Made by a program: the position numbers and the translations under genes. The notes below the pieces were generated by a model. The model made no database searches. It was not told the origin of the DNA and saw only the letters and a program-made list of their open reading frames with translations. From Candidatus Ratteibacteria bacterium (GTDB lineage: Bacteria; Ratteibacteria; UBA8468; MWAK01), in assembly GCA_041653615.1 (NCBI GenBank), contig JBAZEZ010000009.1:5330-69329 (forward strand): 64,000 nt of DNA, given 5' to 3'. This document shows, piece after piece, positions 12,564-59,848 of this stretch; the first letter of the stretch is position 1, and every line of letters starts with the position of its first letter.

Positions 12564-12962
12564 ATGGCGCAAAAGGTTACCAACGTCACAACGAAACTGT
12601 CTGCAGAAGACGTAATCGTTAGATCGGTCCAGTTTTTTACCAACGAGAAATGGAGAACGCAAACTCAAAGTTCAAGAGCGGTGACGTTTAGGACCAATCT
12701 GCCAGTGCCGCGAGTAATTACCGGTTTTCTTCTTTTTATCGGTGGTATTTTTTTATCTTTTACGATAGTGCTGCTAATAATCGGAATTCCCATGGTTATT
12801 GCCGGATTTTTAATACTTTTCTCTGCTGGAGTACGCTTGCTCGGTTCACAAGACCTGGTGGTAACAGCCACGCAGTCAGGAAACGGTTCTGAAGTTATAA
12901 TTACGCATGCATATCAAGCCGCGCGTTCCGTAAATCAATTTGTTGAAGCTCTTCCTCAGTAA
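12564..12962 (+). CDS. Hypothetical membrane protein (two TM helices)
   Basis: Central hydrophobic hairpin ITGFLLFIGG...GFLILFSAG; SD ggagg. Confidence 0.65.
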   Translation: MAQKVTNVTTKLSAEDVIVRSVQFFTNEKWRTQTQSSRAVTFRTNLPVPRVITGFLLFIGGIFLSFTIVLLIIGIPMVIAGFLILFSAGVRLLGSQDLVVTATQSGNGSEVIITHAYQAARSVNQFVEALPQ

Positions 12963-12978
12963 CCTTTTATTAAAAGTT

Positions 12979-13242
12979 ATGATCGATGTATCCGGAAAAC
13001 CGGAACAAGAATGGATAGAGGAATTAAAACATAGGGAAAGCGACCGAAATTACACAACCGCGCTTATTCTATCGGTTTTGTTCGGCGCCTTTGGCGCGGA
13101 CCGTTTCTATTTGGGATATACCGGACACGGTTATTGGAAACTTGTTACACTTGGCGGTTTTGGCATATGGTGGTTAATTGATATATTTCTAATCGCTTCC
13201 GGTAAATTGCTGGATGCGGATGGGTACTTAATAAAAAAATAA
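12979..13242 (+). CDS. TM2-domain membrane protein
   Basis: ALILSVLFGAFGADRFYLGYTGHGYWKLVTLGGFGIWWLID. Confidence 0.85.
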   Translation: MIDVSGKPEQEWIEELKHRESDRNYTTALILSVLFGAFGADRFYLGYTGHGYWKLVTLGGFGIWWLIDIFLIASGKLLDADGYLIKK

Positions 13243-13299
13243 ACTCCGAATAATGAATGTATCCCGTAGCACTTAAAAACAACTTTTAGAGGAAAAAAC

Positions 13300-14343
13300 A
13301 TGATTAGAATTAATATGAAGTTTTTGTTAATGGGGCTTATTGTGTTGTTTGTTTATAATGTACAGGTGAGTCTTGTTTCTTCATCGGGGGCTCAAAATAT
13401 TGTTTCAATTAAACAAGATGAGCCAACAGTTCAAAAAGTCAGGATACTTATTGACCAGATAAGAGTAATTTCTACGAAAAGTGACGATTTGGAAGCTATA
13501 GGATGGGGCGTAATGACGCAGATGGAGAAAATTGGAAAAATTGGAAATCCTGCTTTACCCCCAATAATAGAAACACTCAACGATGCCAAGGAAAGCTGGA
13601 AGGTCAGATTTTTTATGGCCGTAATCCTAGGAGAAGTTATTCCGGATAAAATGACTGTTCCATCTTTGGTCAGGGTTGTGTCCAATAGAAAAGAACCTAC
13701 ACCACTTCGAACAGAATGTATCCAAGCGATGAGTTACATTGGCGATATCAGCGTAGTGACAACTCTTATCTCTACCCTTCGGGAATCAAATATTAACATA
13801 AAAATCACGGCAATGAATACCTTGGGAAACTTGAAGGATAGCAGGAGTGTTCCTTACCTGATTACTCAATTAGATGATCCCGACTGGAATATCCAAATGG
13901 TGGCTTCGAGATCGCTTGGGCGCATCGGAGACTCACGGGCAATCAGCCCCCTAATCAAAAAAATCAAGGGGAATAAACTACCCAAAGACAATTCAAGAAT
14001 AATGCAAACCGTCACTATTGACGCGTTATCTAACTTCAACACCCCTGAGGTCGAACAATATTTCATATCCATTCTTGAAGAAAATGAAACTGAAGACAAT
14101 GTTAGGATGGCGACAATTGATGGTTTGGGCAGAATGAAGAGCGAAAAGTCTATAGATTTACTCTCGAAATTATTGCTCAGCAAGAAGGAGATTTTTAGAA
14201 AGCATGCAGCTGCAGCACTTGCTGAAATTGGTAATAAGAAAGCACTCAAATCAATTCAGCAGTCTATAGAAAGCACGGACAGTGAATATGTAAAGAATTC
14301 ATTGGAACATTCAGCCAAAAAACTTTCCGAAAGCGGGAAATAG
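13300..14343 (+). CDS. Exported HEAT/PBS-lyase repeat protein
   Basis: N-terminal signal/TM, then about 8 HEAT units (e.g. AMNTLGNLKDSRSVPYLITQLDD, ASRSLGRIGDSRAISPLI). Confidence 0.85.
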   Translation: MIRINMKFLLMGLIVLFVYNVQVSLVSSSGAQNIVSIKQDEPTVQKVRILIDQIRVISTKSDDLEAIGWGVMTQMEKIGKIGNPALPPIIETLNDAKESWKVRFFMAVILGEVIPDKMTVPSLVRVVSNRKEPTPLRTECIQAMSYIGDISVVTTLISTLRESNINIKITAMNTLGNLKDSRSVPYLITQLDDPDWNIQMVASRSLGRIGDSRAISPLIKKIKGNKLPKDNSRIMQTVTIDALSNFNTPEVEQYFISILEENETEDNVRMATIDGLGRMKSEKSIDLLSKLLLSKKEIFRKHAAAALAEIGNKKALKSIQQSIESTDSEYVKNSLEHSAKKLSESGK

Positions 14344-14372
14344 TAAGTAATCATTTGTCGAAGGAGAAGGTT

Positions 14373-17300
14373 ATGAATATTATGATTAAGAAATATCTCC
14401 TTACTATATTGTCGATACCTGTTCTGTCGATTCTTCTGTCTATCCAATACTGCAATGCGTACGTTTCCTGGGCCTCTACTAATCAAAACCAATATCCTGG
14501 GGCCGCAGATGCTGTTTTCAAAGATCTCGGACCCAATGCTTGGGGTATTCCCGTATCTTTTCAGGTAGGTCACGCCGCTATTTTTTACCAGTATGGCACG
14601 GATGGTTCTCGACAGGTAATTCAAGCAAATGGATATAGTGCACCCAGCAGTATAGCATCATGGAGTGATTTCCTGGGAGGCTTGGAATATTGGGGAGCCT
14701 ATTCACAGTCGCGGATTGATGCTTCCGCAAGAGAAGAGATTCTATACATTGCCACTACCTATTGTCTTAATATTCCTTATGCGTTGAATCGTGGACACTA
14801 TAAGGATCCACCGAACAGCTTAAGGTGCGACGGTCTTGTTGAATATTGCTATGAACGGGCTTTTGGTGAAGAGAATTCACCAGCATATACCCAGCCAAAT
14901 CAAGGGATAGTGCCCAATGATCAGTATGATGGAAACGCTCTTCGGCTGTGGTCATTTGCTTTGGATTCAGATAGTTCCGAACATTACATGACTCCTGAAA
15001 TAGTGATGGAATGGATTAACAACCAATCTACTGTAGATGATCCAACCACGGATGATCATGATTGGGGCAGTGGAAATTCAAGACAGGGCAAGAACTCTAT
15101 TAACCATAATCCGGCATTAACGAGTGGAACTGTTAGTCCGTCTTCAGGATATGCCAATTCGACGAGTTTTACGTATTCGGTAAGTTACTCTGATGCCGAC
15201 TTGGATGTGCCAGTCACAGCTTACGTCTATATTGACGGCAACCCACACACAATGACATTTGTCAGCGGTAAAGCATACAATGGGATATATCAATATATAA
15301 CGACTTTATCAAGTGGGTCGCACAGCTACTACTTTTATTTCATTGATAATCAGAATAAATCGGGTTCGTGTAGATTGCCTTCCTCTGGTAATTACTCTGG
15401 GCCGATTATTACCATCCCACCAGCTATCTCCGTATCCCCGTCAGACGGATTGACCTCTTCGGGCAACCAAGGTGGACCGTTCAGCCCCTCAAGCAAACAG
15501 TACTCTGTTTCTAACAGCGGCGGAGGAACCTTAAACTGGACAGCTTCGGCAAACCAGAACTGGGTAACTGTCTCACCAACAAGTGGCACCAACTCCGGGA
15601 CAGCGACAGTTTCAATCAACAGTAACGCCAACAGCCTCTCCGGTGGTGCTACCTACATCGCCACCGTGACCTTTGGCGGAAATGGTGGTAGCACTGCCCG
15701 GCAAGTCAGTCTGACTGTGCAGAATCAGACCGCTATAATCAACATGACTATTGGGCCTCTCCCGGTAGATTTTGGTACCGTTTCGGTCGGCCAATCAGTC
15801 CAGCAAAACCTTACGATTACGAACGGTTCTAATTCAACCGGTGCATTAATAGGTTCCGTTGGCACACCACCTGTTCCTTTTTCCCTTGTGAGCGATAATG
15901 CTTTTAATCTTGCGCCAGGACAATCCAAAATATTCACTTTTCGGTTCTCACCAACAACAAACGATACATTTAACAATAGTTTTGCCGTTACAAGTAATGC
16001 CACCAACCAGGTGAGCCCAGTGAACCTTTCTATGTGCGGTGTTGGCTTCGGCGGACCCAGCTATGGCATGACAATAACTTCGTGCGCAATCAGTAACACC
16101 AACCCAAATACCGGACAAGCGGTAACCCTGACCGGCATGGGTGGTCAGGTACACGGAGTCACAAGTGGGGACTTAATCAAAGTGGTCGTTGGCTTCCGCG
16201 ATGGTTCAGGAAACTGGAGGGGCGGCGAACCGGTTTTGGTTTCGAGCACAGTTCCGGGGCAGAGTTTTCAACCGTGGTCGTACAGCAGCGGTGTTTCCGT
16301 CAACGCACCTTCGAGCTCCGGCACATACTACGTTTGGGTACGTTCAGTGCCAACAGTTACTAATGCCACGGCCATCCAGGATTTTAAAAATGCTGCCCCA
16401 ACCAGTGCTGATCAACAACGGGACGATAAGTGGAGCACACCGCTGACAGTCAACGGCAATGACCCGCTTTTCGGAAATCTACTTTTGTACAAACAGGATG
16501 GAACCCAAATTCTTGGAAACGTCCCTATAGATAATCCTGTTAGGGCTAACGGAACTTATACTGTGGGCAGCGACGGAAGCAACCAAGCATTAAGCCGATG
16601 GGAAATAATTTCGGGAAGTGATGTAGTGTTTACCGATACCTGTCTCTCGGGCGATTTGACTTCTTGCTGGCTACCGGGCAATGCCCTGAACCCTGGAACT
16701 GCTTACACTTTAAAAGTCAGAGCTAAAAACTCCAACAGTATTTGGTCGGAATGGGTTTCCCTGGATTTCAACACGATTCCACAAATACAATCTAATGATT
16801 CAAATGGTGACGGTGTTCCGGATGACCAGACACCAACTAATGCCGATTTAATATCGTATGGTTTCGTTCCTTATAATCCTGGCATTCCTGATTCCGGCCT
16901 TCCCGATACTGCTTTGATCGTAAAGTTCAACAACGAGCCCATCTTGGTTGAGTCCACCGGCAACGATACAATTTCTTATTTTGCCGGCATCACACCTTCG
17001 GAGGTGCCACCGTCAGATTACAGTAATCCTTATGGTGTTTTTACTACCCGGATAGAAGTTCCGGTGGGAACATCCATAACACTCACATACACGTTCCCCG
17101 CAACATTGCCTTCCGGTACTTTATGGTACAAATATGATGAATCTGCCACGGCCGGAAACAAATGGGTTGAATATCCAGATGCATTCCTTGGTCCGGGTTC
17201 AAATCAATTTACGATACAGGTTACCGATGGAGGTGAAGGTGATGCTGACGGAGTTGCCAATGGTATCATCATAGACCCATCCGGACCTATTTCGCCCCCA

Positions 17301-17563: not shown

Positions 17564-17587
17564 GCGACCCTGAAAGGGTCGCGCTAC
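17564..17587 (-). repeat. GTAG-type REP (GCGACCCT subfamily), right island boundary
   Basis: Reverse complement gtagcgcgaccctttcagggtcgc; 23/24 identical to 9704-9727. Confidence 0.85.
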
Positions 17588-20976: not shown

Positions 20977-20986
20977 CAGGCGAGAC

Positions 20987-21059
20987 TTGTCCGCCAAAGC
21001 TTTAGCGAAGGCAGACACCTATCCTACTACACTAGTGCGGGGCTTTAGCCCCGCACTAC
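20987..21059. repeat. CCGCC-family hairpin (20987-21015) plus GTAG REP (21033-21059)
   Basis: ttgtccgccaaagctttagcgaaggcaga; tagtgcggggctttagccccgcactac. Confidence 0.75.
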
Positions 21060-21353: not shown

Positions 21354-22322
21354 ATGTCTACTCTTATACGCGTCGCGGTTGACCTGTCCGGCAGTGAAAA
21401 AGGCCCGGCGGAAGTCTTGGAAGGCGCGATACTCGCCCGACAAGAAGGAAACCTGGAAATAATCCTGGTCGGACAAAGTTCCGCGGTGGCCGGAAAAGAC
21501 CTGGCGGGGTGTTCGTTCCTGGAAGCGCCGCTGGCCATTCCGATGTCAGAAAAGATAAGCCGGGAATTATTGCGCAACCAGGACAGTTCCCTCTTTAAAA
21601 TCGTACGGCTGGTGCAAGAAGGCAAGGCGGACGCGGCGGTAAGCGGTGGAAACACCGCCTGCTTTGTGGCGCTGGCCACAACGCTTCTGGGAACTATTCC
21701 CGACGTGGAACGGTCCGGCATCGCTATCTTTCTGCCTAAAATGAGCGGAACCACAATCCTGATTGACGCCGGCGCCAACACCGCCACCACTCCCAAACAC
21801 CTGGTCTCTTACGCGATAATGGGCAGTTACCTCCACCAGGCCCTTTTTAGTTCGGAAAAACCCAGGATTGGCCTGCTCAACGTAGGCGAGGAAGAGACCA
21901 AAGGCAGTGACCTCTATCGCGAAACCCACCTTCTTTTAAAACAGGACCAGCGAATTAATTTTATCGGAAACGTTGAAGGCCATAATATCTTCGACCCGCA
22001 GGTTGACGTGGTTGTGACTGACGGATTTACCGGAAACTGCATCCTGAAAACAATTGAAGGCGTAACCGGAGATTTTGCCTCGTTTCTTAAAGAAGAAATT
22101 GTCAAAAAAGGGCTGGAACATGAACCGGCTGTTACCGAGATACTGGGTAATTTTCTTCGCCGGGGCGATTTCGCCGAATACAGCGGCGGCTTCCTGATGG
22201 GTGTCTCCGGACTCTGCGTTATCATCCACGGACGGTCAGGCGCGGAAGCCCATCGGAAAGCAATTCTGCGCGCCCGGGACGCGGCAGCCGGTAAACTGAT
22301 GTCCCGCCTTCGCTCGCCATAG
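21354..22322 (+). CDS. plsX: Phosphate acyltransferase PlsX
   Basis: VAVDLSGSE, AVSGGNT, LIDAGAN, GLLNVGEEETKG, FIGNVEG, VVTDGFTGN, IIHGRS. Confidence 0.93.
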   Translation: MSTLIRVAVDLSGSEKGPAEVLEGAILARQEGNLEIILVGQSSAVAGKDLAGCSFLEAPLAIPMSEKISRELLRNQDSSLFKIVRLVQEGKADAAVSGGNTACFVALATTLLGTIPDVERSGIAIFLPKMSGTTILIDAGANTATTPKHLVSYAIMGSYLHQALFSSEKPRIGLLNVGEEETKGSDLYRETHLLLKQDQRINFIGNVEGHNIFDPQVDVVVTDGFTGNCILKTIEGVTGDFASFLKEEIVKKGLEHEPAVTEILGNFLRRGDFAEYSGGFLMGVSGLCVIIHGRSGAEAHRKAILRARDAAAGKLMSRLRSP

Positions 22323-22352
22323 CGGGCTTCGGCGGGCAAAGCCCGCCAGAAA
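22314..22352. repeat. CCGCC-family hairpin overlapping the plsX stop
   Basis: tcgccatagcgggcttcggcgggcaaagcccgcca. Confidence 0.7.
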
Positions 22353-22405: not shown

Positions 22406-22473
22406 CTGGATTCCCGCGCCTACTATCCGCCTTCGCCAAGGCTACGGCGGACACAGTCCGCGGGAATGACAGG
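22406..22473. repeat. ATTCCC/GGGAAT element with a nested CCGCC-family hairpin
   Basis: ctggattcccgcg [tccgccttcgccaaggctacggcggac] cgcgggaatgacagg. Confidence 0.8.
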
Positions 22474-23048: not shown

Positions 23049-23127
23049 TGTCATTCCTGTGGATTATAAGCAGGAATCTACAACCTTAAAGGAATTGAAT
23101 TCCCGCTAAAAACATGCGGGAACGACA
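23049..23127. repeat. ATTCCC/GGGAAT doublet (REPIN-like)
   Basis: tgtcattcctg...caggaatc spacer gaattcccgc...gcgggaacgaca. Confidence 0.8.
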
Positions 23128-23905: not shown

Positions 23906-24469
23906 ATGTTTCCTTACGTAGTGGTGGGGTTAGGCAACCCCGGCTCCGGCTACCAGAAAAACAGGCATAATTTAGGATTTCGCGTTATAGACGAATTATC
24001 CCGCCAAGACGAAAACTCATCCTTATCCGGCGCGGTATCTTTTCGAAAGAACGGCAAGGCATTTGTGGCGAAGGTAAAAATTGCAGACCGAAACCTGATT
24101 CTCACTAAACCGCACACTTACGTAAACCGCAGCGGCGAAGCGGTCTTAAGCATTCTGACACGCAACCGAATCCCTAAAGAAAATATTCTGATCGTTTGCG
24201 ATGACCTGTCTTTGCCCTTGGGAACTTCGCGGCTGCGCTTTAAAGGCAGTTCCGGCGGACACAACGGTTTGCAATCAATCATTGAGGCAATCGGAAACGA
24301 GTTTGCCCGTCTCCGGCTTGGCATCGGAACACCGGGGTCTTCGGCGGAATGGGCTGATTATGTTTTGAAAGATTTTACGCCGACCGAAGAAGAAAAACTT
24401 CCGGAAATAATAGACCAGGCGGTTGAGGAAATCATAAACTTCATAAAAAGCCAAACGAAAAATAGCTAA
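23906..24469 (+). CDS. pth: Peptidyl-tRNA hydrolase
   Basis: VVGLGNPG, RHNLGF, KPHTYVNRSG, GSSGGHNGL, RLRLGIG. Confidence 0.96.
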   Translation: MFPYVVVGLGNPGSGYQKNRHNLGFRVIDELSRQDENSSLSGAVSFRKNGKAFVAKVKIADRNLILTKPHTYVNRSGEAVLSILTRNRIPKENILIVCDDLSLPLGTSRLRFKGSSGGHNGLQSIIEAIGNEFARLRLGIGTPGSSAEWADYVLKDFTPTEEEKLPEIIDQAVEEIINFIKSQTKNS

Positions 24470-24472
24470 ATA

Positions 24473-24587
24473 GGACGCAGATATACGCAGAAAAAACGGG
24501 ATAATACTAAATGATAATCTTTATTAGAGCGTTTCCTGGCAATTCTTTAAGGTAATTTTTAATCCGTATCTGCGGTAATCTGCGTCC
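24473..24587. repeat. GGACGCAG inverted-arm element, copy 2
   Basis: ggacgcagatatacgcag...atctgcggtaatctgcgtcc. Confidence 0.85.
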
Positions 24588-24594
24588 AAAAAAT

Positions 24595-25755
24595 ATGGAC
24601 TACTTTCAAGAATCGCTCGCCCTGCACCTGAAACACCGGGGAAAGATTGAAGTGTGCAGCAAGGTTGCGCTAAAAGACAAGACTGACTTGTCCCTTGCTT
24701 ACACGCCCGGCGTAGCCGCGCCCTGCAAGGAAATTGAACAGGACCCAAAACGTCTCTACGACTACACCAGCAAGGGAAACATGGTAGCGGTGGTAACCGA
24801 CGGCAGCGCAGTACTGGGCCTGGGCAACATCGGACCGGAAGCCAGCCTGCCGGTAATGGAGGGAAAAGCAATTCTCTTCAAAGAATTCGGCGGGATTGAC
24901 GCCTTTCCCATCGCCATCGCCAGCCAGGATGTAGACGAGATTGTCCGCACCGTCGTCTTAATTTCACCCGTATTTGGCGGCATAAATCTGGAGGATATTT
25001 CCGCCCCCCGATGCTTCCTGATTGAAGAACGACTAAAAAAAGAACTGAAAATTCCGGTCTTTCACGACGACCAGCATGGAACCGCGGTGGTAACATACGC
25101 GGCCCTGTTAAATGGCTTAAAAATAGTAAGGAAAAAGAAGGAAGATATTAAAGTGGTCATCTCCGGGGCAGGCGCCGCCGGTATTGCGATTGCCAAATTC
25201 CTTTTGGCGGCCGGCGTTACCGAAATCATTGTCTGTGACCGCCGCGGAACCATATATGAAGGCAGGAACGGCGAAACCAATACCGCCAAAGAAAAGATAG
25301 CCCTGCTCACCAACCGGAAAAAACTCTCCGGAAGTTTATCTTCCGCGCTGGCCGGCGCGGATGTTTTTGTCGGAGTTTCGGTGCCGGGCCTGATTACCGC
25401 GGAAGACGTGAAGAAAATGGCCGCCCGAGCCATCGTCCTGGCGATGGCCAACCCGATTCCGGAAATTTCACCGGAAGAAGCCAAGGGCGCCGGCGCCGCA
25501 ATCGTGGCAACCGGACGAAGCGACTACTCCAACCAAGTCAACAACCTGTTAGCTTTTCCGGGAATTTTCAAAGGCGCTTTTCAGGCAAAAGCGGTGAGTA
25601 TTACCGAAGAAATGAAAATTGCGGCCAGCTTGGCGATTGCCTCGCTGGTTTCCAACAAAGAACTCTCGCCGAATTATATTATCCCCTCGCCCCTGGACCG
25701 CCGCGTGGCCGATTCTGTCGCGGAATCGGTAAAGACCGCCGCGCTTCAGCGGTAG
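24595..25755 (+). CDS. NAD(P)-dependent malic enzyme (short form, no PTA domain)
   Basis: [62 protein letters not shown]. Confidence 0.93.
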
Positions 25756-28708: not shown

Positions 28709-28794
28709 GTAGGGGCGCGGAGTTGCATCCCCACCCGATAAGACTAAGGCTTTCAGCCCACGTGATACAGGAGGGGACGCAGCCCCTCCCCTAC
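28709..28794. repeat. Inverted GTAG REP doublet upstream of mraY
   Basis: gtaggggcgcggagttgcatcccc ... ggaggggacgcagcccctcccctac. Confidence 0.8.
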
Positions 28795-28798
28795 ATTA

Positions 28799-31983: not shown

Positions 31984-32039
31984 CGGGAATCCATACCTTA
32001 AATATTTAGATTCCCGCTTACTATCCGCGGGAATGACAG
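31984..32039. repeat. ATTCCC/GGGAAT element (partial doublet)
   Basis: cgggaatcc...agattcccgc...gcgggaatgaca. Confidence 0.75.
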
Positions 32040-35544: not shown

Positions 35545-35554
35545 AAAACTCTTT

Positions 35555-35652
35555 GGACGCCGATTACCGCAGATAATCGCGGATACAGATTAAAAATACT
35601 TTATAGAAATATCATTTAGCATTATCCGCAATTTCTGTGAAAATCTGCGTCC
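35555..35652. repeat. GGACGCAG inverted-arm element, copy 3
   Basis: ggacgccgattaccgcagataatcgcggat...aaaatctgcgtcc. Confidence 0.85.
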
Positions 35653-35655
35653 TAT

Positions 35656-36522
35656 TTAAATCTTTTCCGCGGCGCGCAATTTCGCGCTGCGGCTGGCCGG
35701 GTTGACAACCACTTCTTCCCGGCCGGACCGAACCGGCTTTCTGGTAATAACCCGCAGCTGTTCATTTTGCTTCAGGAAGTTTTTAACAATACGGTCTTCC
35801 AGGGAATGGTAGGAAATTATGGCCAGTCGGCCGCCGGGCTTGAGAATTTCCACGGCCTGGGGAAGCGAAATCTCCAAACTTTCCAGTTCCCGATTAACCG
35901 CTATTCTCAGGGCCTGGAAAACACGGGTAGCCGGGTCAGACTTTCCGTGCCGGCGTATCACCCGTCGGCTGATTTCCGCCAGTTGGATCGTGGTATTCGC
36001 AGCGTTACAATTTACCGCTTCTTTTATCCTGACGGCCAACCGTCTGCTCTCCCGGATTTCACCGTATTGGTAAAGAACATCGGCCAGTTCCTCGGCCGAC
36101 AAATCCTTCAGCAACCGCGAGACCGGTTCACCTTCCGCCCGATTGAACCTCATATCCAACGGCCCTTCCCTTTGAAACGAAAAACCTCTTTCGGCCTCAT
36201 TCAGCAAATAGCTGGAAAGACCCAAATCGTAAATTATTCCGTCCGGCGCGTTAAAGCCGGCGCTGCCGGCCAGTAATTTCAAATCCCGAAAATCCCCTTC
36301 CCGAAAAGTGGCTTGACCGGAAAAATCCTTTAACCGGTTGCGGGCTTCTTCCAGCGAACTTACGTCCCGGTCCAGACAGAGTAATTTTACCTCACTTCCA
36401 GAAACCGCCAACATCGCCACGCTGTGCCCGGCAGTACCGGTGGTGGCGTCAATAAAAAAACCACCTTTTTCCGGTTGGAGTATAGTCAGAACTTCCGCAG
36501 TTAAAACAGGTATGTGTAACAT
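35656..36522 (-). CDS. rsmH: 16S rRNA m4C1402 methyltransferase
   Basis: HIPVL, DATTGTAGHS, DLGLSS, GPLDMR, RVFQALRIAVNREL, ISYHSLEDRIVK, SRSAKLR. Confidence 0.96.
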   Translation of the reverse strand: MLHIPVLTAEVLTILQPEKGGFFIDATTGTAGHSVAMLAVSGSEVKLLCLDRDVSSLEEARNRLKDFSGQATFREGDFRDLKLLAGSAGFNAPDGIIYDLGLSSYLLNEAERGFSFQREGPLDMRFNRAEGEPVSRLLKDLSAEELADVLYQYGEIRESRRLAVRIKEAVNCNAANTTIQLAEISRRVIRRHGKSDPATRVFQALRIAVNRELESLEISLPQAVEILKPGGRLAIISYHSLEDRIVKNFLKQNEQLRVITRKPVRSGREEVVVNPASRSAKLRAAEKI

Positions 36523-36611
36523 CAGTGAACGGTGAATGGTTAACGGTGAATGGTAAAAGATTCAAGAATTAAATCAGTTACCGTTTACGATTTACGATTC
36601 ACCGTTTACTG
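36523..36611. repeat. Heptamer-arm inverted element (CAGTGAA...TTACTG), copy 1
   Basis: Arms of GGTGAAT/GGTAAAT-like 7-mers and their complement around the core aaaagattcaagaattaaa. Confidence 0.85.
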
Positions 36612-36616
36612 TTGTT

Positions 36617-37027
36617 GGGGGGCGATAAGCCGGGTTCTGTTTAGATAGCCATTTCTCTTGGCCCTGTCTTACGACAGGGCTCAAGCAGCCTACCCGGGGT
36701 ATTTGCGGAGCGGGCGTCCATCCCCCTGCTCGGCCTTGCTCCAGAGAGGTGTTTGCCAAACGGCAATCTTACGATTGCCGCCGGTGAGCTCTTACCTCAC
36801 CTTTGCACCCTTACTCGTCTACGCAAAACTATGGCGGGCTTTGCCCGCAGTAGCCTTGGCGAAAACGGGCGGTTTATTTTCTGTGGCACTTTCCGTTTCC
36901 TTGCGGAACCTGGGTGTTACCCAGTCCCGGCCCGACCGGAGCCCGGACTTTCCTCAGTTACCGACTTTGTCCGCCGAAGCCAGCTTCGGCATAGGCGGAT
37001 GCAGTAACTGCAGCTATCTCGCCCCCC
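36617..37027 (-). ncRNA. rnpB: RNase P RNA (type A) with expanded P3 and P12
   Basis: Minus strand has GAGGAAAGTCCGGGCT, AGTGCCACAGAAAA and ACAGAACCCGGCTTA; P1 GGGGGGCGA/TCGCCCCCC. Confidence 0.95.
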
Positions 37028-37035
37028 CCTAAATA

Positions 37036-37110
37036 CGGTGAACGGTGAATGGTAAATGGTAAAAGATTCAAGAATTAAAGCGGTTACCATTCACTATTCA
37101 CCATTCACTG
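37036..37110. repeat. Heptamer-arm inverted element, copy 2
   Basis: Shares atggtaaaagattcaagaattaaa with copy 1; contains the rnhA stop codon. Confidence 0.85.
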
Positions 37111-37530
37111 CTTTTTATCCAACGCCTTATTCGCCAGCTGGTCGGCGGTTTTGTTTTCGTCGTGACTTAGTTTTTCAAAAGAGACTTTCCCCAACCCGGA
37201 AACAAGGCGCTGCGCCAAAAGATGAAACCGCTTGATATCTTCGTTCTTGACCTGGTAACGACCGGTCATCTGATTTATCAGAAGTTCGCTATCGCTATAA
37301 ATCGTTAATTCCAATACATCGGTTTTTGTCGGTAAATTATGCGCATATAAAAGTGTTTCTCCCAATCCGTAAAGAAGCGCGGTATATTCAGCGATGTTAT
37401 TGGTGGTAATTCCAATTTCAAGGCCAACCTCTTTCAGCGATTGGCCTTCCGGGTCATAAAGAGCGACTCCAATGGCAGACCGGCCCGGATTACCCCGGCT
37501 TGCTCCATCAATGAAAATGGTTAGTTTCAT
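37105..37530 (-). CDS. rnhA: Ribonuclease HI family protein
   Basis: IFIDGASRGNPG, TNNIAEY, SDSELLINQM, ADQLANKALD. Confidence 0.9.
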   Translation of the reverse strand: MKLTIFIDGASRGNPGRSAIGVALYDPEGQSLKEVGLEIGITTNNIAEYTALLYGLGETLLYAHNLPTKTDVLELTIYSDSELLINQMTGRYQVKNEDIKRFHLLAQRLVSGLGKVSFEKLSHDENKTADQLANKALDKKQ

Positions 37531-44272: not shown

Positions 44273-44334
44273 GTTGGATAAATTTTTAAGCGCTTAGAAA
44301 AAGGCTGAACGGAAAAGTTATTTGTATTTTTTCA

Positions 44335-44525
44335 AACGAGGGTGTTTGGTTAAGTAAAATTTCACGTAGTGTCAGGAACAAAACAAGCAGAACGGAGAGG
44401 TGAGTATCCGGGGCTCACCCGAACCACGGGTGAGAACACGGAGAGGCTCGCCTCGGAGTTACGTAGTTTTGTCTGACACGCAGGGTGTTTTACAAACCAA
44501 ACATCCGAGTTATTCAGTGGCACGG
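44335..44525. repeat. Structured ~190-bp repeat, copy 1 (3' of the MFS gene)
   Basis: Colinear with 45750-45990; closing stem gtgtcag..acaaaac/gttttgtctgacac. Confidence 0.8.
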
Positions 44526-45749: not shown

Positions 45750-45990
45750 AACGAGGGTGTCCGGTGAACGGCATTTCGCAGAGTTGTTTGTTTTTACCCC
45801 AAATGAGGATTGTTTCTTTTGCAACACTTCGCGGAGTGACAGTTACAAAACAAGCAATACGGAGGCTTGAGTAGCCGGGGCTCGCCTTGTAATATAGGCA
45901 AGAACACGGAGAGGCTCAAGCCGGAGTTGCGTAGTTTTGTCTGACACGTAACGTGTGGAGCAAAAGAAAAATCCGAGTTACTCAATGGAG
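45750..45990. repeat. Structured repeat, copy 2 (3' of galT, 5' of MFS)
   Basis: Shares aacgagggtgt, acaaaacaagca, ccggggctc, agaacacggagaggctc, cgtagttttgtctgacacg and atccgagtta with copy 1. Confidence 0.8.
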
Positions 45991-46997: not shown

Positions 46998-47016
46998 AAT
47001 AGTCTCCTTCGGAAAC

Positions 47017-47073
47017 GGGAGGGGACGTAGCCCCTCCCCTACATTAACAACGCCGAGCAAGCTCGGCAACTAC
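47017..47073 (-). repeat. Two tandem GTAG REPs (47017-47042, 47052-47073)
   Basis: Reverse complements gtaggggaggggctacgtcccctccc and gtagttgccgagcttgctcggc. Confidence 0.8.
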
Positions 47074-49188: not shown

Positions 49189-49267
49189 TGTCATTCCTGC
49201 AGATTTTTAGCAGGAATCTACGCTTTTAAAAATACTGGATTCCCGCTTGATACACGCGGGAATGACA
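49189..49267. repeat. ATTCCC/GGGAAT doublet (REPIN-like)
   Basis: tgtcattcctgc...gcaggaatc spacer ggattcccgc...gcgggaatgaca. Confidence 0.82.
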
Positions 49268-52012: not shown

Positions 52013-52021
52013 CTTAACCTC

Positions 52022-52095
52022 CGTGGATGGTCAACGGTAAATAGTAAATGGTAAAATCTTTAAACCATTCACGATTCACAATTCACCATTTACTG
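52022..52095. repeat. Heptamer-arm inverted element, copy 3
   Basis: Core aaaatctttaaacc; ends tttactg. Confidence 0.8.
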
Positions 52096-52446
52096 CTTTA
52101 TGTCCGAATTGTCCATGGCCATTTTACCGAGCACCGGTAAAAGAAAATATTCGCCCCGATATGCCTTGACCATTAGGACAATCCAAAAAACGACTCCCGC
52201 TAAATTAATCAAGTAACGAAAGATTTTCAACAGCGGCGGTGCAAAAGAAAAAACGGCGGTAATCACCGATAACAAAACAAGCCAGACGACTGAAAAAAAT
52301 ATCGCCTGCAGGCTGTGAAAACGAATAAACTTATTCTTCTTTTCTGTCAGGAAAAAGAAGAGGCCGGTAATTACGCTGAAAATACCCAGCACATAACAAA
52401 GCAATCCGGCCATATTTTCCTTCAATCCGCTGCTTGTCTCTTCCAT
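52090..52446 (-). CDS. DUF4870-like membrane protein
   Basis: SSGLKENMAGLLCY, FIRFHSLQAI, MVKAYRGE..LPVLG. Confidence 0.8.
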   Translation of the reverse strand: MEETSSGLKENMAGLLCYVLGIFSVITGLFFFLTEKKNKFIRFHSLQAIFFSVVWLVLLSVITAVFSFAPPLLKIFRYLINLAGVVFWIVLMVKAYRGEYFLLPVLGKMAMDNSDIKQ

Positions 52447-52455
52447 GCTTACCTC

Positions 52456-52515
52456 CGTGAATGGTGAATGGTGAATGGTTTAAAGATTTCACTATTCATC
52501 GTTTACTGTTCACTG
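52456..52515. repeat. Heptamer-arm inverted element, copy 4
   Basis: gtgaatggtgaatggtgaatgg; core ggtttaaagatttc is the near reverse complement of the copy 3 core. Confidence 0.8.
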
Positions 52516-53414
52516 TTTTTCAACGCCTCGATAACCGGGGCCAAACCTCCGTCCATAATCTCCTTAAGATTGCGGCTGGTAAAACCGATGCGGTGGTCAG
52601 TCAGGCGATTCTGGGGAAAGTTATAGGTTCTAATCTTTTCGCTGCGGTCGCCGGTTTTTATTTTTGCCCGGCGCTCCGCGCCCATTGCTTCTTCCTGCTC
52701 TCTTTCCTGCTGTTCAGCCAAACGGGCCGCCATCACCTTCAAGGCGCGTTCCTTGTTTTGCAACTGACTGCGCTCATCCTGGCAACTGACCACAATTCCG
52801 GTGGGAAGGTGAGTCACGCGGACCGCCGAATAGGTCGTATTGACCGATTGACCTCCGGCTCCGGAAGAACAGAAGGTGTCAATTTTAACCTCTTTCGGGT
52901 CAATTTTTACTTCCCTGACTTCGGTTTCCGGAAAAGCCGCTACCGTAGCGGCCGAAGTATGGATACGGCCGCTGGATTCCGTTTCCGGAATACGCTGCAC
53001 CCGATGCACGCCGCTTTCGTATTTCAAAAAACCGTAAGCGCCCTTTCCTTTAACCAGAAAAATGATTGACCTTATTCCGTTTTTTTCGCTGAAATTACTG
53101 TCAAAAATTTCGGTTTTCAAACCCTTCCGTTCCGTGAAGCGGGTATACATCCGAAAGAGGTCCCGGGCAAAAAGAGCGGCTTCTTCGCCGCCGGTTCCGG
53201 CTCTCACCTCAACGATGGCATTACGGCTGTCCCGACCATCCAAACTTTTTTTCGCTGAATCTTTCTCCAGCCGGCTCACCTCTGCCCGCAGCCGAACAAC
53301 TTCTTCCCGGGCCAACTCCGCCATCCCCGAATCCTTTTCGCTTCGGGCCAACTCCTCTGCTTCGGCCAGCTCTTTTTTTATTCTCTCGAGAATATAATTA
53401 TTCCTTTTTACCAT
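52503..53414 (-). CDS. prfA: Peptide chain release factor 1, apparently N-terminally shortened
   Basis: [29 protein letters not shown] (PxT), [20 protein letters not shown]; probable ATG at 53414 inside the rpmE 3' end. Confidence 0.85.
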
Positions 53415-54152: not shown

Positions 54153-54162
54153 ATTAATTTTT

Positions 54163-54279
54163 GGACGCAGATTACCGCTGATTACCGCAGATAAAGTATA
54201 ATAAAAATTTCTTATAGAAATACTTTTAAAAAATTATCGTTTAGTATATTATCCGCAGTTTCTGCGAAAATCTGCGTCC
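54163..54279. repeat. GGACGCAG inverted-arm element, copy 4
   Basis: ggacgcagattaccgctgattaccgcagat...aaaatctgcgtcc. Confidence 0.87.
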
Positions 54280-54285
54280 TCTTGC

Positions 54286-56058
54286 TCATAGCGCTGCGGA
54301 AAGTTCATTAAACTCATCCCAAATTTCTCCGGGCATCCGGTCTCCGAATTTCTTCAAAAAGATTTCTACGTCGGCAAGTTCTGCTTTCCATTCCCCGGGA
54401 TTTACGGCCAACGCCTTTTCCAAATTCGCCTCGGAAATGTCCAGGCCGGAGAGGTCCAGACCGTTCCGGCCGGGCAGAATTCCGGCCGGCGTCTCCCGAA
54501 AATTCGTGGAACCGGAATCGAGGGAACGCTCAATAATCCATTTCAAAACCCGGATATTATCGCCGAAACCGGGCCAGAGAAATTTTCCGTCTTCATCTTT
54601 GCGGAACCAGTTGATACAAAATATTTCCGGCGGACTGGTCATTCGTTTCCCCATATCCAACCAGTGTTGAAAATAATCACCCATATTATAGCCGCAAAAA
54701 GGCAGCATTGCCATCGGGTCCCGGCGCAAAACCCCAACCTTAAGAGCCGCGGCGGCCGTAGTCTCCGAACCCATCGCAGCCGCCATAAATACGCCGTGCT
54801 GCCAGTTAAAACCTTGCATGACCAGCGGTCTGGTATCGCTCCTGCGCCCGCCGAAAATTATGGCAGAAATCGGAACTCCTTGCGGATTATCGGCTTCCGG
54901 TGAAAGCGTGGGACACTGCCTGATATCGACCGTAAACCGGGAATTGGGATGGGCCGCCGGCGTTTTGGATTCCGGTTGCCAGGGATTCCCCTGCCAATCC
55001 AATAAATTTTCCGGCCGGGCGCCATCCATCCCCTCCCACCACGGTTCGTTGGTTTCGGTGTTCAAGGCAGTATTCGTATAAAGGGTAGGATAAGAAGTAC
55101 CCGCTTTCAGGGTCCTCATCATGTTAGGATTGGTCGCCAGAGAAGTCCCGGGCGCTACTCCAAAAAACCCGGTTTCCGGGTTAAGCGCGTAAAGCCGGCC
55201 ATCCTTTCCGATATGCAGCCAGGCAATGTCGTCACCCAGGGTCCATATTTTGTATTCGGGCAAGGCTGATTCCATCATTGCCCGGTTGGTCTTCCCGCAG
55301 GCGGAAGGAAGCGCCGCAACCAGGTAAGTAACGTTTCCTTTCGGGTCTTCCACGCCGATAATAACCATGTGCTCAGCCAACCAGCCTTCCTTTAAACCCA
55401 ACCAGGAAGCAATCCTTAAAGAAAAACATTTTTTACCCAGAAGCGCGTTTCCGCCGTAACCGGAACCGATACTCCAGACCAGGTTCTCTTCGGGGAAATG
55501 CATGATAAAACGGCGGCTGGGGTCAAAATCACCTACCGAATGAATGCCCTTTACGAAATCTTCCGAGGCGCCTATCTTATTCACAGCCTCTTTTCCCAGA
55601 CGGGTCATTATCCGCATGCTAACCGCAACGTAAGAAATGTCTGTAATCTGGACGCAGGCCTTGGCATACGGGGAAAGGGGATTACCCATCACGTAGGGAA
55701 GCACGTACATCGTCCGTCCGGTCATGCATCCTTCGGAGAGCGCGCGCATTTTCGCTTTGGCTTCCGCCGGGTCCATCCAGTTGTTGTTGGGTCCGACCGT
55801 CTCTCGGTCCGGGTGACATACAAACGTCAGTTGTTCGGTCCGGGCAACATCGGTCGGGTGGCTTCGGTGCAGGTATGAAAAAGGAAATGTTTCCTGATTA
55901 AGTTTATAAAACACGTTCTGACTGCCGATACGCTCTTCTTTTTCACCGATTTCAACCAGGCGGCGCGCTTCTTCCTCGGAACCGTCGCACCAATATACCC
56001 GGGCCGGCTTGGTCAGCCGCGCCTGTTCCTCAACCCATTTTTCTAAAGGTGTCGCCAT
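54286..56058 (-). CDS. pckG: GTP-dependent phosphoenolpyruvate carboxykinase
   Basis: DVARTE, SGYGGNALLGKKCF, WLAEHM, PSACGKTN, GDDIAW, NPETGFFGVAPG, HPNSRF, FGGRR, DPMAMLPFCGY. Confidence 0.96.
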   Translation of the reverse strand: MATPLEKWVEEQARLTKPARVYWCDGSEEEARRLVEIGEKEERIGSQNVFYKLNQETFPFSYLHRSHPTDVARTEQLTFVCHPDRETVGPNNNWMDPAEAKAKMRALSEGCMTGRTMYVLPYVMGNPLSPYAKACVQITDISYVAVSMRIMTRLGKEAVNKIGASEDFVKGIHSVGDFDPSRRFIMHFPEENLVWSIGSGYGGNALLGKKCFSLRIASWLGLKEGWLAEHMVIIGVEDPKGNVTYLVAALPSACGKTNRAMMESALPEYKIWTLGDDIAWLHIGKDGRLYALNPETGFFGVAPGTSLATNPNMMRTLKAGTSYPTLYTNTALNTETNEPWWEGMDGARPENLLDWQGNPWQPESKTPAAHPNSRFTVDIRQCPTLSPEADNPQGVPISAIIFGGRRSDTRPLVMQGFNWQHGVFMAAAMGSETTAAAALKVGVLRRDPMAMLPFCGYNMGDYFQHWLDMGKRMTSPPEIFCINWFRKDEDGKFLWPGFGDNIRVLKWIIERSLDSGSTNFRETPAGILPGRNGLDLSGLDISEANLEKALAVNPGEWKAELADVEIFLKKFGDRMPGEIWDEFNELSAAL

Positions 56059-56063
56059 AAATT

Positions 56064-56096
56064 CAGTGAATAGTAAACGGTGAATAGTGAATGGTA
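56064..56096. repeat. Heptamer-arm element, single arm
   Basis: cagtgaatagtaaacggtgaatagtgaatggta. Confidence 0.65.
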
Positions 56097-56186
56097 ATCG
56101 ACTACTAAAAACTTAACTTTATATTTTACTACAACGGCGGGAATTCGGCAAACGCAGAAAATGGGGTCACCTGACTAACGAAAATA

Positions 56187-58362: not shown

Positions 58363-58373
58363 CAAAATAATTT

Positions 58374-58484
58374 GGACGCAGATAAACGCAGAAACGACAG
58401 GATAAAGATTAAAATAATTTTAAATTACTTTTAAGAATTTTTTCGTTATGTTTTATCTGCGGTTATCTGCGAAAATCAGCGTCC
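58374..58484. repeat. GGACGCAG inverted-arm element, copy 5
   Basis: ggacgcagataaacgcag...atctgcgaaaatcagcgtcc. Confidence 0.85.
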
Positions 58485-59209
58485 TAAAAACTTGCGTTCA
58501 GCCGCGCCAAGTCCTCCGGCGTATCCACGCACTGGCTGTCAAAAGGGGTGATGACCACCCGGATTTTGGCGCCGTTTTCCTGCGCGCGCAATTGTTCCAG
58601 TTGCTCAATCTCTTCCAGAACACCGGTTGGCCAGGAAGCGAATTTCAGCAAAAAATCCCGCCGGAATCCGTAAATACCCAGGTGCTTGTAAGCGGCGGTC
58701 TTCGGCAATCTCCCCTGATTATCGCGCTCATAGGGAATTGAGGCCCGGGTGAAATAAAGCGCGTCGCCGAACCGGTCCACCACTACCTTGACCGCGTTGG
58801 TATCAACCCATTCCGTTTCACTTAACACCGGCGTCGCCGCAGTCGTCATCAAAACACCCGGCGTTTGAAAAGGTTCTGCCACTTCGATGATAACTTCCGG
58901 CGCGATAAACGGCTCGTCCGCCTGGATATTGATAAATATATCGGCTTCAATTTCGCGGGCCAGATAAGCCGCCCGATCGGAACCGGAGGAAAACTTTCCA
59001 ACCACCATGCGCGCCGAACCGCCGAAAGCCCGCACCGCCTTTAATACCCTCTCGTCGTCGGTGGCCACGATAATTTCGTCCAAAACTTTTGCCTTTTGCG
59101 CCTGGCGGTAAACGTGCTCAATCAAAGGCTTGCCTTTCAAAACCGCCAGCACTTTCCCGGGAAAACGGCTGGACTGGTAACGCGCCGGAATAACTCCGAT
59201 TATTTTCAT
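58484..59209 (-). CDS. kdsB: 3-deoxy-manno-octulosonate cytidylyltransferase
   Basis: IPARYQSSRFPGKVL, SGSDR, NIQADEP, NAVKVV, ALYFTRASIP, KHLGIYGFR, LEQLRAQENG. Confidence 0.94.
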   Translation of the reverse strand: MKIIGVIPARYQSSRFPGKVLAVLKGKPLIEHVYRQAQKAKVLDEIIVATDDERVLKAVRAFGGSARMVVGKFSSGSDRAAYLAREIEADIFINIQADEPFIAPEVIIEVAEPFQTPGVLMTTAATPVLSETEWVDTNAVKVVVDRFGDALYFTRASIPYERDNQGRLPKTAAYKHLGIYGFRRDFLLKFASWPTGVLEEIEQLEQLRAQENGAKIRVVITPFDSQCVDTPEDLARLNASF

Positions 59210-59736
59210 ATTTTTATTATTTCAATTATCTCCCGCGCTACAACCCGCGGAGTTTTACCGTCTGTATCCACGCAGATGTCCGCCTTCCGGTAAAGAGGCA
59301 GGCGCTGCGATAAAAGGTTTTTAATTGTTTTTTCTTTCGGGAGGGGACAGAGCCCCTCCCCTACATTTTTAGGGGCATTCAAAAGCGGACGACCGTTATC
59401 CCCGGCAACCCGTTTTTTAATTTCGCCCGGAGAAACCATCAGAAAAATAACAATACCGTTCTTTTTAAGGTTCTTCCGGTTCGCGGAATCAACGATTGAC
59501 CCGCCTCCGGCGGCGATTACCACGCCTTCTTTCCGGGAAACATCCGCAACCACTTTCTTTTCCAAAGAACGAAAAAACGGTTCGCCCTGACGCCGGAAGA
59601 TTTCCTTAATCGATTGACCGGACTTCCCTTCGATAATAGAGTCGGTATCAATGAATTCGAGATTTAGTTTCCGGGCCAGAATCTTTCCGGTTGAACTCTT
59701 GCCGGCCCCCATGAATCCGGTCAGGACAATTTTCAT
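59206..59736 (-). CDS. aroK: Shikimate kinase with an in-frame REP insertion
   Basis: LTGFMGAGKS, GEPFFRSLE, AAGGG, RPLL, RLPLY. Confidence 0.93.
   Translation of the reverse strand: MKIVLTGFMGAGKSSTGKILARKLNLEFIDTDSIIEGKSGQSIKEIFRRQGEPFFRSLEKKVVADVSRKEGVVIAAGGGSIVDSANRKNLKKNGIVIFLMVSPGEIKKRVAGDNGRPLLNAPKNVGEGLCPLPKEKTIKNLLSQRLPLYRKADICVDTDGKTPRVVAREIIEIIKI
59339..59364 (-). repeat. GTAG REP in frame within aroK
   Basis: gtaggggaggggctctgtcccctccc encodes VGEGLCPLP. Confidence 0.87.
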
Positions 59737-59765
59737 AAATTCAAAATATAGGAATTTCCTTCTTG

Positions 59766-59848
59766 GGACGCAGATACACGCGGAAACAACAGGATAATAA
59801 TTTCAGAGTATTTCTTTAATCTGTGGTTATCTGCGAAAATCAGCGTCC
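59766..59848. repeat. GGACGCAG inverted-arm element, copy 6 (overlaps the aroC 3' end)
   Basis: ggacgcagatacacgcgg...atctgcgaaaatcagcgtcc. Confidence 0.85.

Follow-up and report, generated by a model that had tools for sequence, protein, structure and literature searches.

Here we describe rnpB, the gene for RNase P RNA, in a 64,000-nt stretch of DNA from a Candidatus Ratteibacteria bacterium (assembly GCA_041653615.1, contig JBAZEZ010000009.1, positions 5,330 to 69,329; this whole stretch is referred to as the window), together with a short hairpin repeat recognized at the tips of its helices P3 and P12. Few ribozymes are universal, and RNase P RNA is one of them. Using cmscan, the gene was matched to the full length of the Rfam model RF00010 (RNaseP_bact_a, model positions 1-367) at 255 bits (E 6e-82), well above the gathering score of 100. 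The conserved core was aligned with high posterior probability, including both P4 strands (GAGGAAAGUCCGGGC and ACAGAACCCGGCUUA) and the J11/12-J12/13 region (CACAGAAA...GUAAGGGUG). On this match, the gene is identified as bacterial RNase P RNA of class A, and its product is predicted to be a ribozyme. The gene and the two helices in question lie as follows:

36613-37027, minus strand: rnpB, bacterial class A RNase P RNA, 415 nt (cmscan, RF00010)
36955-37011, minus strand: helix P3 with its extension, stem GCAGUUACUG/CGGUAACUG (cmscan alignment)
36809-36872, minus strand: helix P12 with its extension (cmscan alignment)

Relative to the RF00010 model, the alignment contained two large insertions, one of 32 nt in the P3 terminal loop (uccgccuaugccgaagcuggcuucggcggaca in RNA sense) and one of 36 nt in P12 (cgccaaggcuacugcgggcaaagcccgccauaguuu in RNA sense, 36826-36861), in agreement with an initial annotation, made from the sequence alone, that had located repeat insertions in the P3 loop and in P12. 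RNAfold predicted a single continuous hairpin for the extended P3 (-27.1 kcal/mol, z -4.7) and one long hairpin for the extended P12 (-29.7 kcal/mol). The gene, both inserts and the two hairpins that flank it were 100% identical in three assemblies made with two pipelines from three samples; this base-for-base identity across independent assemblies indicates that the window allele is not an assembly artefact.

Hairpins of the form TCCGCC...GGCGGA in the window, aligned with the related rnpB inserts, gave the family consensus YCCGCC-TTCGCY-AA-RGCTWC-GGCGGR, followed on the 3' side by CAAG. The unit is approximately 30 nt long, and consists of a 6-bp outer stem (YCCGCC/GGCGGR), a 3x3 internal loop, a 3-bp inner stem (GCY/RGC) and a 2-nt tip. 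Its tail is asymmetric, with CAAG or CAGG conserved at the 3' flank and no conservation at the 5' flank. The base before the stem covaries with its partner (U-A 50, C-G 44), as does the innermost pair (C-G 67, U-A 44, with only 4 exceptions), and all four combinations of the two covarying pairs are common. Conservation extends to positions that the search pattern left free, among them the unpaired bases of the internal loop and the tail.

A covariance model of this hairpin, R1, was built from 115 copies from other phyla, none of them from the clade of the window and none from rnpB, and was run with filters off on both strands of the whole 64 kb. Four intergenic copies ranked first, the tip of P12 fifth and that of P3 sixth, and no further match had E < 1:

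22422-22462, plus strand: intergenic copy between plsX and def (49.6 bits, E 1e-8)
20979-21019, minus strand: intergenic copy downstream of coaD (44.4 bits, E 2e-7)
3489-3529, minus strand: intergenic copy (39.7 bits, E 2e-6)
22299-22347, plus strand: intergenic copy, its tip enlarged by a 12-nt insertion, with the tail hairpin GGCGGGCAAAGCCCGCC (34.8 bits, E 2e-5)
36833-36873, minus strand: copy in P12, RNA-sense (27.0 bits, E ~1e-3)
36965-36999, minus strand: copy in the P3 loop, RNA-sense (R1 match 36959-37003, 18.1 bits, E 0.08)

The first of these is nested in the loop of a ATTCCCGCG...CGCGGGAAT hairpin (22410-22470), and a partial core of the family (3568-3580, 12 bits with R1) lies near the third. 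The P12 copy, CCCGUU-UUCGCC-AA-GGCUAC-UGCGGG, has decayed outer arms (two arm pairs), the tail hairpin CAAAGCCCGCC and the flank CAAAG; in the R1 alignment, GGCGGGCAAAGCCCGCC is made up of its 3' arm and tail, an arrangement identical to that of the genomic copy at 22299-22347. The P3 copy, UCCGCC-UAUGCC-GAAGCU-GGCUUC-GGCGGA with the tail CAAAG, is a long-loop variant of the CCGCC hairpin. Its R1 score is marginal on its own, the E-values of R1 being rough, and its membership of the family follows from a homologue in relative L004 (24.4 bits) and from the shared arms and tail.

The initial annotation had based its proposal on three repeat words. A 17-mer in P12 (36832-36848) is indeed the exact reverse complement of 22332-22348, and a 14-mer (36850-36863) that of 22432-22445; from dinucleotide shuffles, 0.02 matches were expected for the former even with 2 mismatches and 0.03 for the latter with mismatches allowed. 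The 33-mer in P3 does lie at 36967-36999, and its kinship to 20987-21015 was confirmed because both are matches of one independent covariance model. What did not stand is the notion of separate repeats. The sources of the two P12 words (22299-22347 and 22422-22462) are two copies of one family, and for this reason the matches are not colinear with P12; that they represent two separate elements was ruled out by the R1 alignment, in which P12 holds a single copy with its tail. As judged by consensus and covariance model, both rnpB inserts are copies of a single repeat family.

No Rfam family fits the CCGCC hairpin, for which only sub-threshold chance matches were obtained, and a search of 8.3 million full texts gave no match to its sequence strings. 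A search for repeats in RNase P RNA turned up only a citation of Vioque 1997, helix extensions in the Candidate Phyla Radiation (CPR) and general papers on repetitive extragenic palindromes (REPs) and Rickettsia palindromic elements (RPEs).

P3 and P12 tips among relatives

We compared eleven rnpB alleles, using a few kb per relative; new alleles were reached via the neighbouring RsmH gene. The nearest public genomes are metagenome-assembled genomes (MAGs) of Candidatus Omnitrophota, with an RsmH identity of 86-90%. By Rfam search, rnpB adjoins rsmH in every relative whose DNA extends far enough upstream, and the gene order is conserved (CT398-like zinc-ribbon protein, RNase H-like protein, rnpB, rsmH, division/cell-wall cluster). 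A core-pattern scan of a metagenome collection yielded only duplicates of two known alleles and unrelated rnpB genes. The tips of the eleven alleles are occupied as follows (relatives are given by L numbers, bits refer to R1):

Window: P3, sense copy, long-loop variant; P12, sense copy with tail, arms decayed
L261: P3, one antisense copy (40.3 bits); P12, intact sense copy with tail (52.3 bits)
L001: P3, L261-type antisense copy whose loop holds a second, nested copy (45 bits); P12, unrelated hairpin
L003: P3, degenerate antisense copy; P12, antisense copy with tail (49.6 bits)
L004: P3, sense copy, long-loop variant (24.4 bits); P12, unrelated hairpin
L262: P3, antisense copy; P12, minimal, CCGCCCGCCUCAGGCGGG
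L002: P3, empty, 10 bp with a GUA loop; P12, short
L263: P3, empty; P12, minimal
L268 and L269 (more distant): P3, empty; P12, short, unrelated
L271 (more distant): P3, empty; P12, head-to-head dimer (44.6 bits)

Outside P3 and P12, rnpB is 93-96% identical among the five alleles compared in this respect (the window and four others), and the coding DNA flanking it is 81-89% identical. The P3 and P12 tips are mostly unalignable among the relatives, and in these relatives, too, R1 matches the rnpB tips best. RNAfold predicted one continuous extended helix for each of the ten P3 and P12 variants of the window and L001 to L004. With RF00010, the tip-heavy alleles of the clade score approximately 245-262 bits, compared with at least 300 for other rnpB genes in the same scans.

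The clearest single event is found in a pair of P3 loops. Allele L261 reads ...UCCGCCGAAGC|UUUAGCGUAGGCGGA... (GAAGC|TTTAGCG), and allele L001 reads ...UCCGCCGAAGC[AUGUCUGCCGAAGCCUUGGCGAAGGCAGAC]UUUAGCGUAGGCGGA..., in which exactly one family unit, hairpin and tail CATG, accounts for the additional 30 nt and lies in the apical loop of the older copy. In the consensus orientation, the nested unit is preceded by AAAG, and comparison with L261 revealed no target duplication at the insertion. Given that P3 copies occur in both orientations and that some relatives have an empty P3, the element must have entered P3 at least twice, in addition to one nested event. Sequence comparison likewise indicates that P12 has been entered or replaced several times in the clade. 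The distribution of inserts follows neither the tree of RsmH, a single gene, nor the type of P3 stem, and recombination between alleles may therefore also contribute. A related nesting was observed at a gene junction of L263, where a family copy (622-663) lies inside a GGGCUCGA/UCGAGCCC-CTACA hairpin; nothing interrupts this junction in the window, L262, L268 or L271, and L261 has another hairpin there.

With R1, the native minimal P12 of L262 reaches 17.8 bits, because its stem and 3' flank (GGCGGG-UAAG) resemble the arm and tail at the element's own end (GGCGGR-CAAG). As a separate observation, the window repeat type GGGAGGGG...CCCCTCCC-CTACA is a candidate for the family of the P12 hairpins in L004 and L001.

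No repeat-free relative was found to share the extensions of the window allele: L002 and L263 have no P3 insert, and L262 and L263 have a minimal P12. The view of the initial annotation that a dispersed hairpin element had entered these helices is supported in addition by the dispersed copies in the same genome and by the alleles that differ among relatives. Its description of the element as active holds insofar as alleles differ between species; activity is read from such differences rather than from an observed move.

P3 and P12 generally count as variable regions that drift slowly; in this clade they turn over by gain, inversion, nesting and replacement, while the core changes by 4-7%. With lengths from 349 to 452 nt, the alleles form a natural series of insert-bearing and insert-free RNAs, a possible basis for testing the ribozyme's tolerance of peripheral load.

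The hairpin beyond the clade

Genome collections were scanned with exact patterns, using one genome per species; the cross-phylum counts are lower bounds, because such scans recover exact patterns only, over limited lists of matches. At least 120 stretches matched the core pattern, compared with approximately 4 expected from a uniform-composition estimate, which is not a matched null. The matches are dispersed across more than 10 phyla and come from Acidobacteriota, Verrucomicrobiota, Bacteroidota, Bradyrhizobium isolates, other Alphaproteobacteria, Patescibacteria, Nitrospirota, Elusimicrobia, Brocadiia, other Omnitrophota and Geobacter; a clade-specific repeat was thereby ruled out. Among the first 120 matches, one lies inside P12 of a Geobacter rnpB and one 25 nt downstream of a Patescibacteria-like rnpB.

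When the hairpin core was sought in either orientation directly 5' of GUAAGGGUGAAA, it was found as the P12 tip in at least 69 species of at least 6 phyla: 23 Desulfuromonadales and other 'delta' species, 17 taxonomically scattered Alphaproteobacteria, 13 members of the Planctomycetes-Verrucomicrobia-Chlamydiae (PVC) group, including Akkermansia, Kiritimatiellia and Victivallales, 6 Bacteroidota, 2 Actinomycetota, 2 Marinimicrobia and 6 unclassified. Of these, 57 have the hairpin in antisense and 8 in sense orientation, and 4 were classed as other. Many of these species have a P12 of normal length that consists entirely of the hairpin, and the PVC hairpins keep the tail, as in L003 and L271. 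R1 also matched P3 in several of these cross-phylum rnpB genes; by cmscan, the hairpin is present in P3 as well as P12 of L190, L253 and L200, and L254 has a 30-nt P3 insert with tail. In several Desulfuromonadales, the hairpin constitutes both P3 and P12 at near-normal helix length. The initial annotation had held that the element survives only at tolerant helices. Its location in P3 and P12 was borne out, but tolerance alone may not explain this location, because the family recurs at the same two helices in other phyla and the P12 stem with its 3' flank (GGCGGG-UAAG) is itself similar to the end of the element (GGCGGR-CAAG).

Among the 124 dispersed matches listed, 16 have a tRNA gene within 160 nt, 2 are in or beside rnpB, one is just upstream of a transfer-messenger RNA (tmRNA) gene and one just upstream of a duplicated tmRNA 5' segment. 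Relative to the neighbouring open reading frames (ORFs), dispersed copies showed no bias in orientation (15 to 10) and no preference for gene 3' ends, and they occur between divergent and convergent genes at similar frequency (11 and 12). These properties argue against a terminator or strand-specific RNA role for most copies, and a role as terminator was ruled out on the same grounds and by the lack of a T-run. Taken together, the scans point to a very widespread small element or RNA module that is absent from the literature searched.

The surroundings of individual copies are varied. In two unrelated bacteria (L184, 7440-7760, minus strand; L164, 6588-7216), a CCGCC hairpin lies 5-6 nt upstream of a tmRNA 5' end. 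In L184, this end belongs to a duplicate of the promoter region and the first 20 nt of tmRNA, approximately 255 nt upstream of the gene, and the duplicate contains three hairpin copies; the tmRNA gene of L164 also contains a group I intron. In L140 (Candidatus Tantalella remota, 1-120), the hairpin is preceded by three left half-units, CCGCCTTTGCCAAGGCTT, and followed by four right half-units, CGGCGGACAAGT. The hairpin was also noted as the centre of an array in L110, L157, L162 and L117; outside L140, unrelated tandem hexamer to octamer repeats flank it.

Across phyla, copies are enclosed by outer stems more often than expected: 11 stems reach 6 bp or more, compared with 4.7 expected, and 4 reach 8 bp or more, compared with 0.4. 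Loop nesting as a general rule was rejected; because just 5-10% of copies, approximately, are nested, it is retained as a tendency.

Origin of the inserts

The explanation that we favour, and consider probable, is that the distal parts of P3 and P12 derive from a REP-like DNA element of approximately 30 nt that entered their apical loops repeatedly, in either orientation, and is carried as a tolerated passenger. Its basis is the family membership of the inserts, their placement at the helix tips, the differences in presence and orientation among alleles and the one clean 30-nt insertion. The element would enter the P3 and P12 apical loops at the DNA level, repeatedly and in both orientations, within the Omnitrophota clade. 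Exposed loops would be its targets; the intergenic copies of this genome often lie inside the loops of other hairpins. An inserted copy would lengthen the peripheral helix coaxially and leave the catalytic core untouched, and could in this way persist. The existence of close relatives without inserts, the occurrence of both orientations in a single clade and the decay of copies together argue that the inserts are passengers in this lineage, and we infer that they are neutral for the ribozyme. The most likely mode of movement would be transposition of a single-strand DNA hairpin into exposed loops, of the kind known for REPs and REP-associated tyrosine transposases (RAYTs) or for IS200/IS605. 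Alternatively, copies may spread by template switching or gene conversion among hairpins with a common CCGCC/GGCGG stem, the native P12 included; such copying would account for P12 hairpins of normal length, and it fits the R1 score of the native minimal P12 with its UAAG flank.

Several observations weigh against this explanation. No Y1/HUH transposase domain was found by Pfam scans of 28 ORFs of the window, 64 kb being a small part of the genome, and no ORF lies between the inverted copies in L114, where a RAYT-like gene was sought. Neither a target-site duplication nor a clear target motif was seen, and the filled and empty P3 sites do not correspond to a clean cut-and-paste event, as their closing bases differ. 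The near-normal-length P3 and P12 hairpins of Desulfuromonadales look more like replacement, or like an RNA module, than like insertion. The excess of antisense over sense copies in P12 (57 and 8) implies some selection at the RNA level, and, REPs being normally species-specific, near-identity of 30 nt over more than 10 phyla is unusual for elements of this kind.

A wider proposal, which seems to us possible but on balance doubtful, is that a pan-bacterial 30-nt element homes to hairpins of stable-RNA genes (P3, P12 and the flanks of tmRNA and tRNA genes) and is specifically tied to RNase P. Under this proposal, the native P12 (CCGCC...GGCGGG-UAAG) might mimic the end of the element and act as a decoy target for the mobilising enzyme, or else the hairpin might be an RNA module with a function common to RNase P and the transcripts of its substrates. 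If the proposal is true, the element would be a previously undescribed pan-bacterial one.

Rather unlikely, in our estimation, is the reading that the hairpin is a functional RNA module, such as a protein site or a stable cap, recruited to P3, P12 and the flanks of stable-RNA genes and maintained by selection. A selected RNA function is conceivable, since the hairpin recurs at P3 and P12, has a skewed orientation in P12 and lies close to genes for RNase P substrates. The hairpin forms the P12 tip in at least 69 species of at least 6 phyla, and both tips at near-normal length in several Desulfuromonadales. The prevailing antisense orientation in P12 places a purine GAA/GAA or GUA/GAA internal loop in the RNA, and the P12 hairpins tolerate G-U wobbles (7 cases), with a C-A once. 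The strong covariation of the stem and the proximity of listed copies to tRNA genes (16 of 124), to tmRNA or its duplicated segment (2) and to rnpB (2) are also in line with it. However, P3 and P12 hold the hairpin in both orientations, even inside one clade; the close relatives L002, L262 and L263 do without it at one or both tips; and in L001 and L004 the P12 tips are unrelated hairpins. Copies decay, as in the P12 arms of the window and the degenerate P3 copy of L003, dispersed copies have no bias in orientation to transcription and lie between divergent and convergent genes alike, and Rfam has no family for the hairpin.

We regard as very unlikely the reverse direction, in which the hairpin is native to P12 (CCGCC/GGCGG followed by UAAG) and the dispersed copies stem from fragments of rnpB. 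This would agree with the 17.8 bits of the native minimal P12 of L262 and with the species in which the hairpin is P12 itself at normal length. On the other hand, the similarity of dispersed copies ends with the hairpin and a tail of 4-6 nt and does not run into J12/13 or J11/12, and the two matching loci of the window are not colinear with P12. L268 and L269 have no family copy at either tip, L271 has none in P3 in spite of its P12 dimer, and in the in-group members L262 and L263 P12 is minimal and lacks the core. Dispersed copies are numerous in Acidobacteriota, with no P12 match among those listed, whereas Geobacteraceae have the P12 hairpin, and yet a single dispersed-scan match among those listed, which is rnpB itself.

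That the similarity reflects chance or convergence of GC-rich hairpins, the P3 and P12 extensions being ordinary lineage-specific expansions, is hardly credible. Short words are common among stable GC hairpins, and P3 and P12 are the length-variable helices of bacterial RNase P RNA. Against this stand the exact 17-mer and 14-mer, for which 0.02-0.03 matches were expected, the rank of the P12 and P3 tips, fifth and sixth on both strands of 64 kb with an independent model, and the consensus-perfect copies of the sister allele L261 (52 and 40 bits); conservation of the unpaired internal-loop bases and of the tail likewise counts against chance or convergence. The misjoining of repeats into rnpB during metagenome assembly is a negligible prospect, even though the short-read contigs L257, L259 and L260 end at the hairpins flanking the gene, for the window allele was recovered in three assemblies from three samples, and the L001 and L004 alleles were each recovered twice independently (as L057 and L059).

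Other repeats of the window and known systems

Hairpins of a different repeat family adjoin rnpB on both sides:

37030-37113: heptamer-arm hairpin (GGTGAAT-like tandem), directly upstream of rnpB (repeat search)
36517-36616: second heptamer-arm hairpin, directly downstream of rnpB, before rsmH (repeat search)

In the relatives, the hairpins flanking rnpB are present, absent or of another type, and L004 has a clean empty site downstream; by this variation and by the nested copies described above, hairpin repeats are evidently mobile in the clade. The heptamer-arm hairpins (GGTGAAT, GGTAAAC and others) are 80-100 nt long and resemble the short tandemly repeated repetitive sequences (STRRs) of cyanobacteria, with further copies at 52015-52098, 52449-52520 and 56058-56100. 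Short-read contigs break at these hairpins, and in the public MAG of L004 a run of N (masked) lies directly upstream of rnpB (approximately 2480-2580). A second family of long intergenic hairpins has arms of the GGACGCAGAT or CGCAGAT type (8896-9009, 24465-24603, 35547-35656, 54155-54285, 58366-58490, 59758-59854 and 62566-62691) and also occurs upstream of rnpB in L001. CTAC(A) follows GC-rich hairpins at 4725-4754, 9709-9727, 9740-9793, 17564-17587, 21033-21058, 28764-28798, 47012-47046 and 59334-59368. Since CTAC(A) reads GTAG on the other strand, the classical REP tag, a second, REP-like family coexists with the CCGCC hairpin, and a hairpin of this type holds the CCGCC copy in its loop in L263. 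Hairpins of the ATTCCCGC...GCGGGAATGACA family lie at 3864-3912, 23098-23127, 32009-32038, 49238-49267 and 22410-22470, the last with the CCGCC element in its loop.

The sole Rfam match in the window other than rnpB is a tRNA at 3789-3862 on the minus strand. Approximately 190 nt away, in a hairpin-rich region, a stretch of about 24 nt (approximately 3601-3626, gtcggggcgactggatacgaaccac) nearly duplicates the 3' end of this tRNA, and may be a remnant attachment site or a tRNA fragment. A stretch at approximately 10000-16000 has 41-44% GC, compared with about 50% elsewhere, and may be an acquired island; at its edge, a DUF6922 protein and an AbiEii-type nucleotidyltransferase toxin are encoded (9853-10885, a type IV toxin-antitoxin pair). 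Two adjacent minus-strand genes, for a major facilitator superfamily (MFS) transporter and a GalT-like protein, each have at their 3' end one of two direct repeats of approximately 190 nt (44333-44520 and 45800-45988; 74-81% identical, 1468 nt apart); these are not hairpin repeats and may represent a duplicated trailer, a terminator region or a small RNA.

The nearest precedent for the rnpB inserts is provided by STRR sequences. As Vioque reportedly described in 1997, STRR heptamer repeats lie inside P12 of rnpB in heterocyst-forming cyanobacteria; they are said to lengthen this peripheral helix, to differ between related strains and to leave the ribozyme functional, and to occur in P12 only. 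The likeness lies in a peripheral helix that is lengthened and varies among relatives. In contrast to the STRRs, which are tandem heptamers restricted to cyanobacteria, the inserts of the window are single hairpin units with a tail, in P3 as well as P12 and across phyla, and the heptamer-arm hairpins of the window flank rnpB instead of lying inside P12. PMC2858038 cites Vioque 1997 (Nucleic Acids Res 25:3471) for the dispensability of P12 in cyanobacteria.

With REPs, the CCGCC hairpin shares an imperfect GC-rich palindrome of 20-40 nt, a one-sided tetranucleotide, many intergenic copies in both orientations and head-to-head dimers (here in P12 of L271 and at Acidobacteriota loci), and its stem covariation fits recognition as a single-stranded hairpin, as with REPs. 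Four intergenic copies on both strands of 64 kb, and dimers and nested copies elsewhere, conform to a short dispersed palindrome. The tag differs, being CAAG or CAGG on the 3' side (CTTG on the other strand) instead of GTAG/CGTC; GTAG occurs only inside the internal loop of some copies. Whereas REP families are normally specific to a species or genus, the CCGCC hairpin is nearly identical over more than 10 phyla, and no RAYT was found among the 28 ORFs scanned in the window. REPs are sometimes inserted in other palindromes or in genes (PMC3733652).

RPEs form in-frame insertions in protein-coding genes (PMC1779305; PMC3733652). They resemble the present inserts as selfish palindromic repeats that survive in essential genes where the product tolerates extra material, and differ in their length of 100-150 bp, their restriction to Rickettsia and their reported sites in protein-coding genes, as opposed to a 30-nt element in ribozyme helices. 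Intervening sequences (IVSs) in helices 25 and 45 of 23S rRNA are at least 100 nt long and are excised by RNase III, so that the rRNA is fragmented. Like the RNase P inserts, they are extra hairpins at the tips of variable helices in an essential structural RNA, sporadic among close relatives; they exceed the approximately 30 nt of the RNase P inserts, which are known here from the gene sequence. In sponge mitochondria, short GC-rich hairpins have repeatedly invaded intergenic regions (PMC2800124), a likeness in behaviour between organellar hairpins and a CCGCC element of unrelated sequence. Miniature inverted-repeat transposable elements (MITEs) are 70-300 bp long, with terminal inverted repeats and target-site duplication, and the 30-nt unit, with no duplication between L261 and L001, departs from this pattern.

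The general idea of repeats inside rnpB is thus not new, given the STRR precedent. What appears to be new is that the repeat is a discrete hairpin and not a tandem of heptamers, and that P3 and P12 are both occupied. The series of gain, inversion and nesting among close relatives also appears to be new, as do the identity of the element across phyla and its recurrence at the same two helices.

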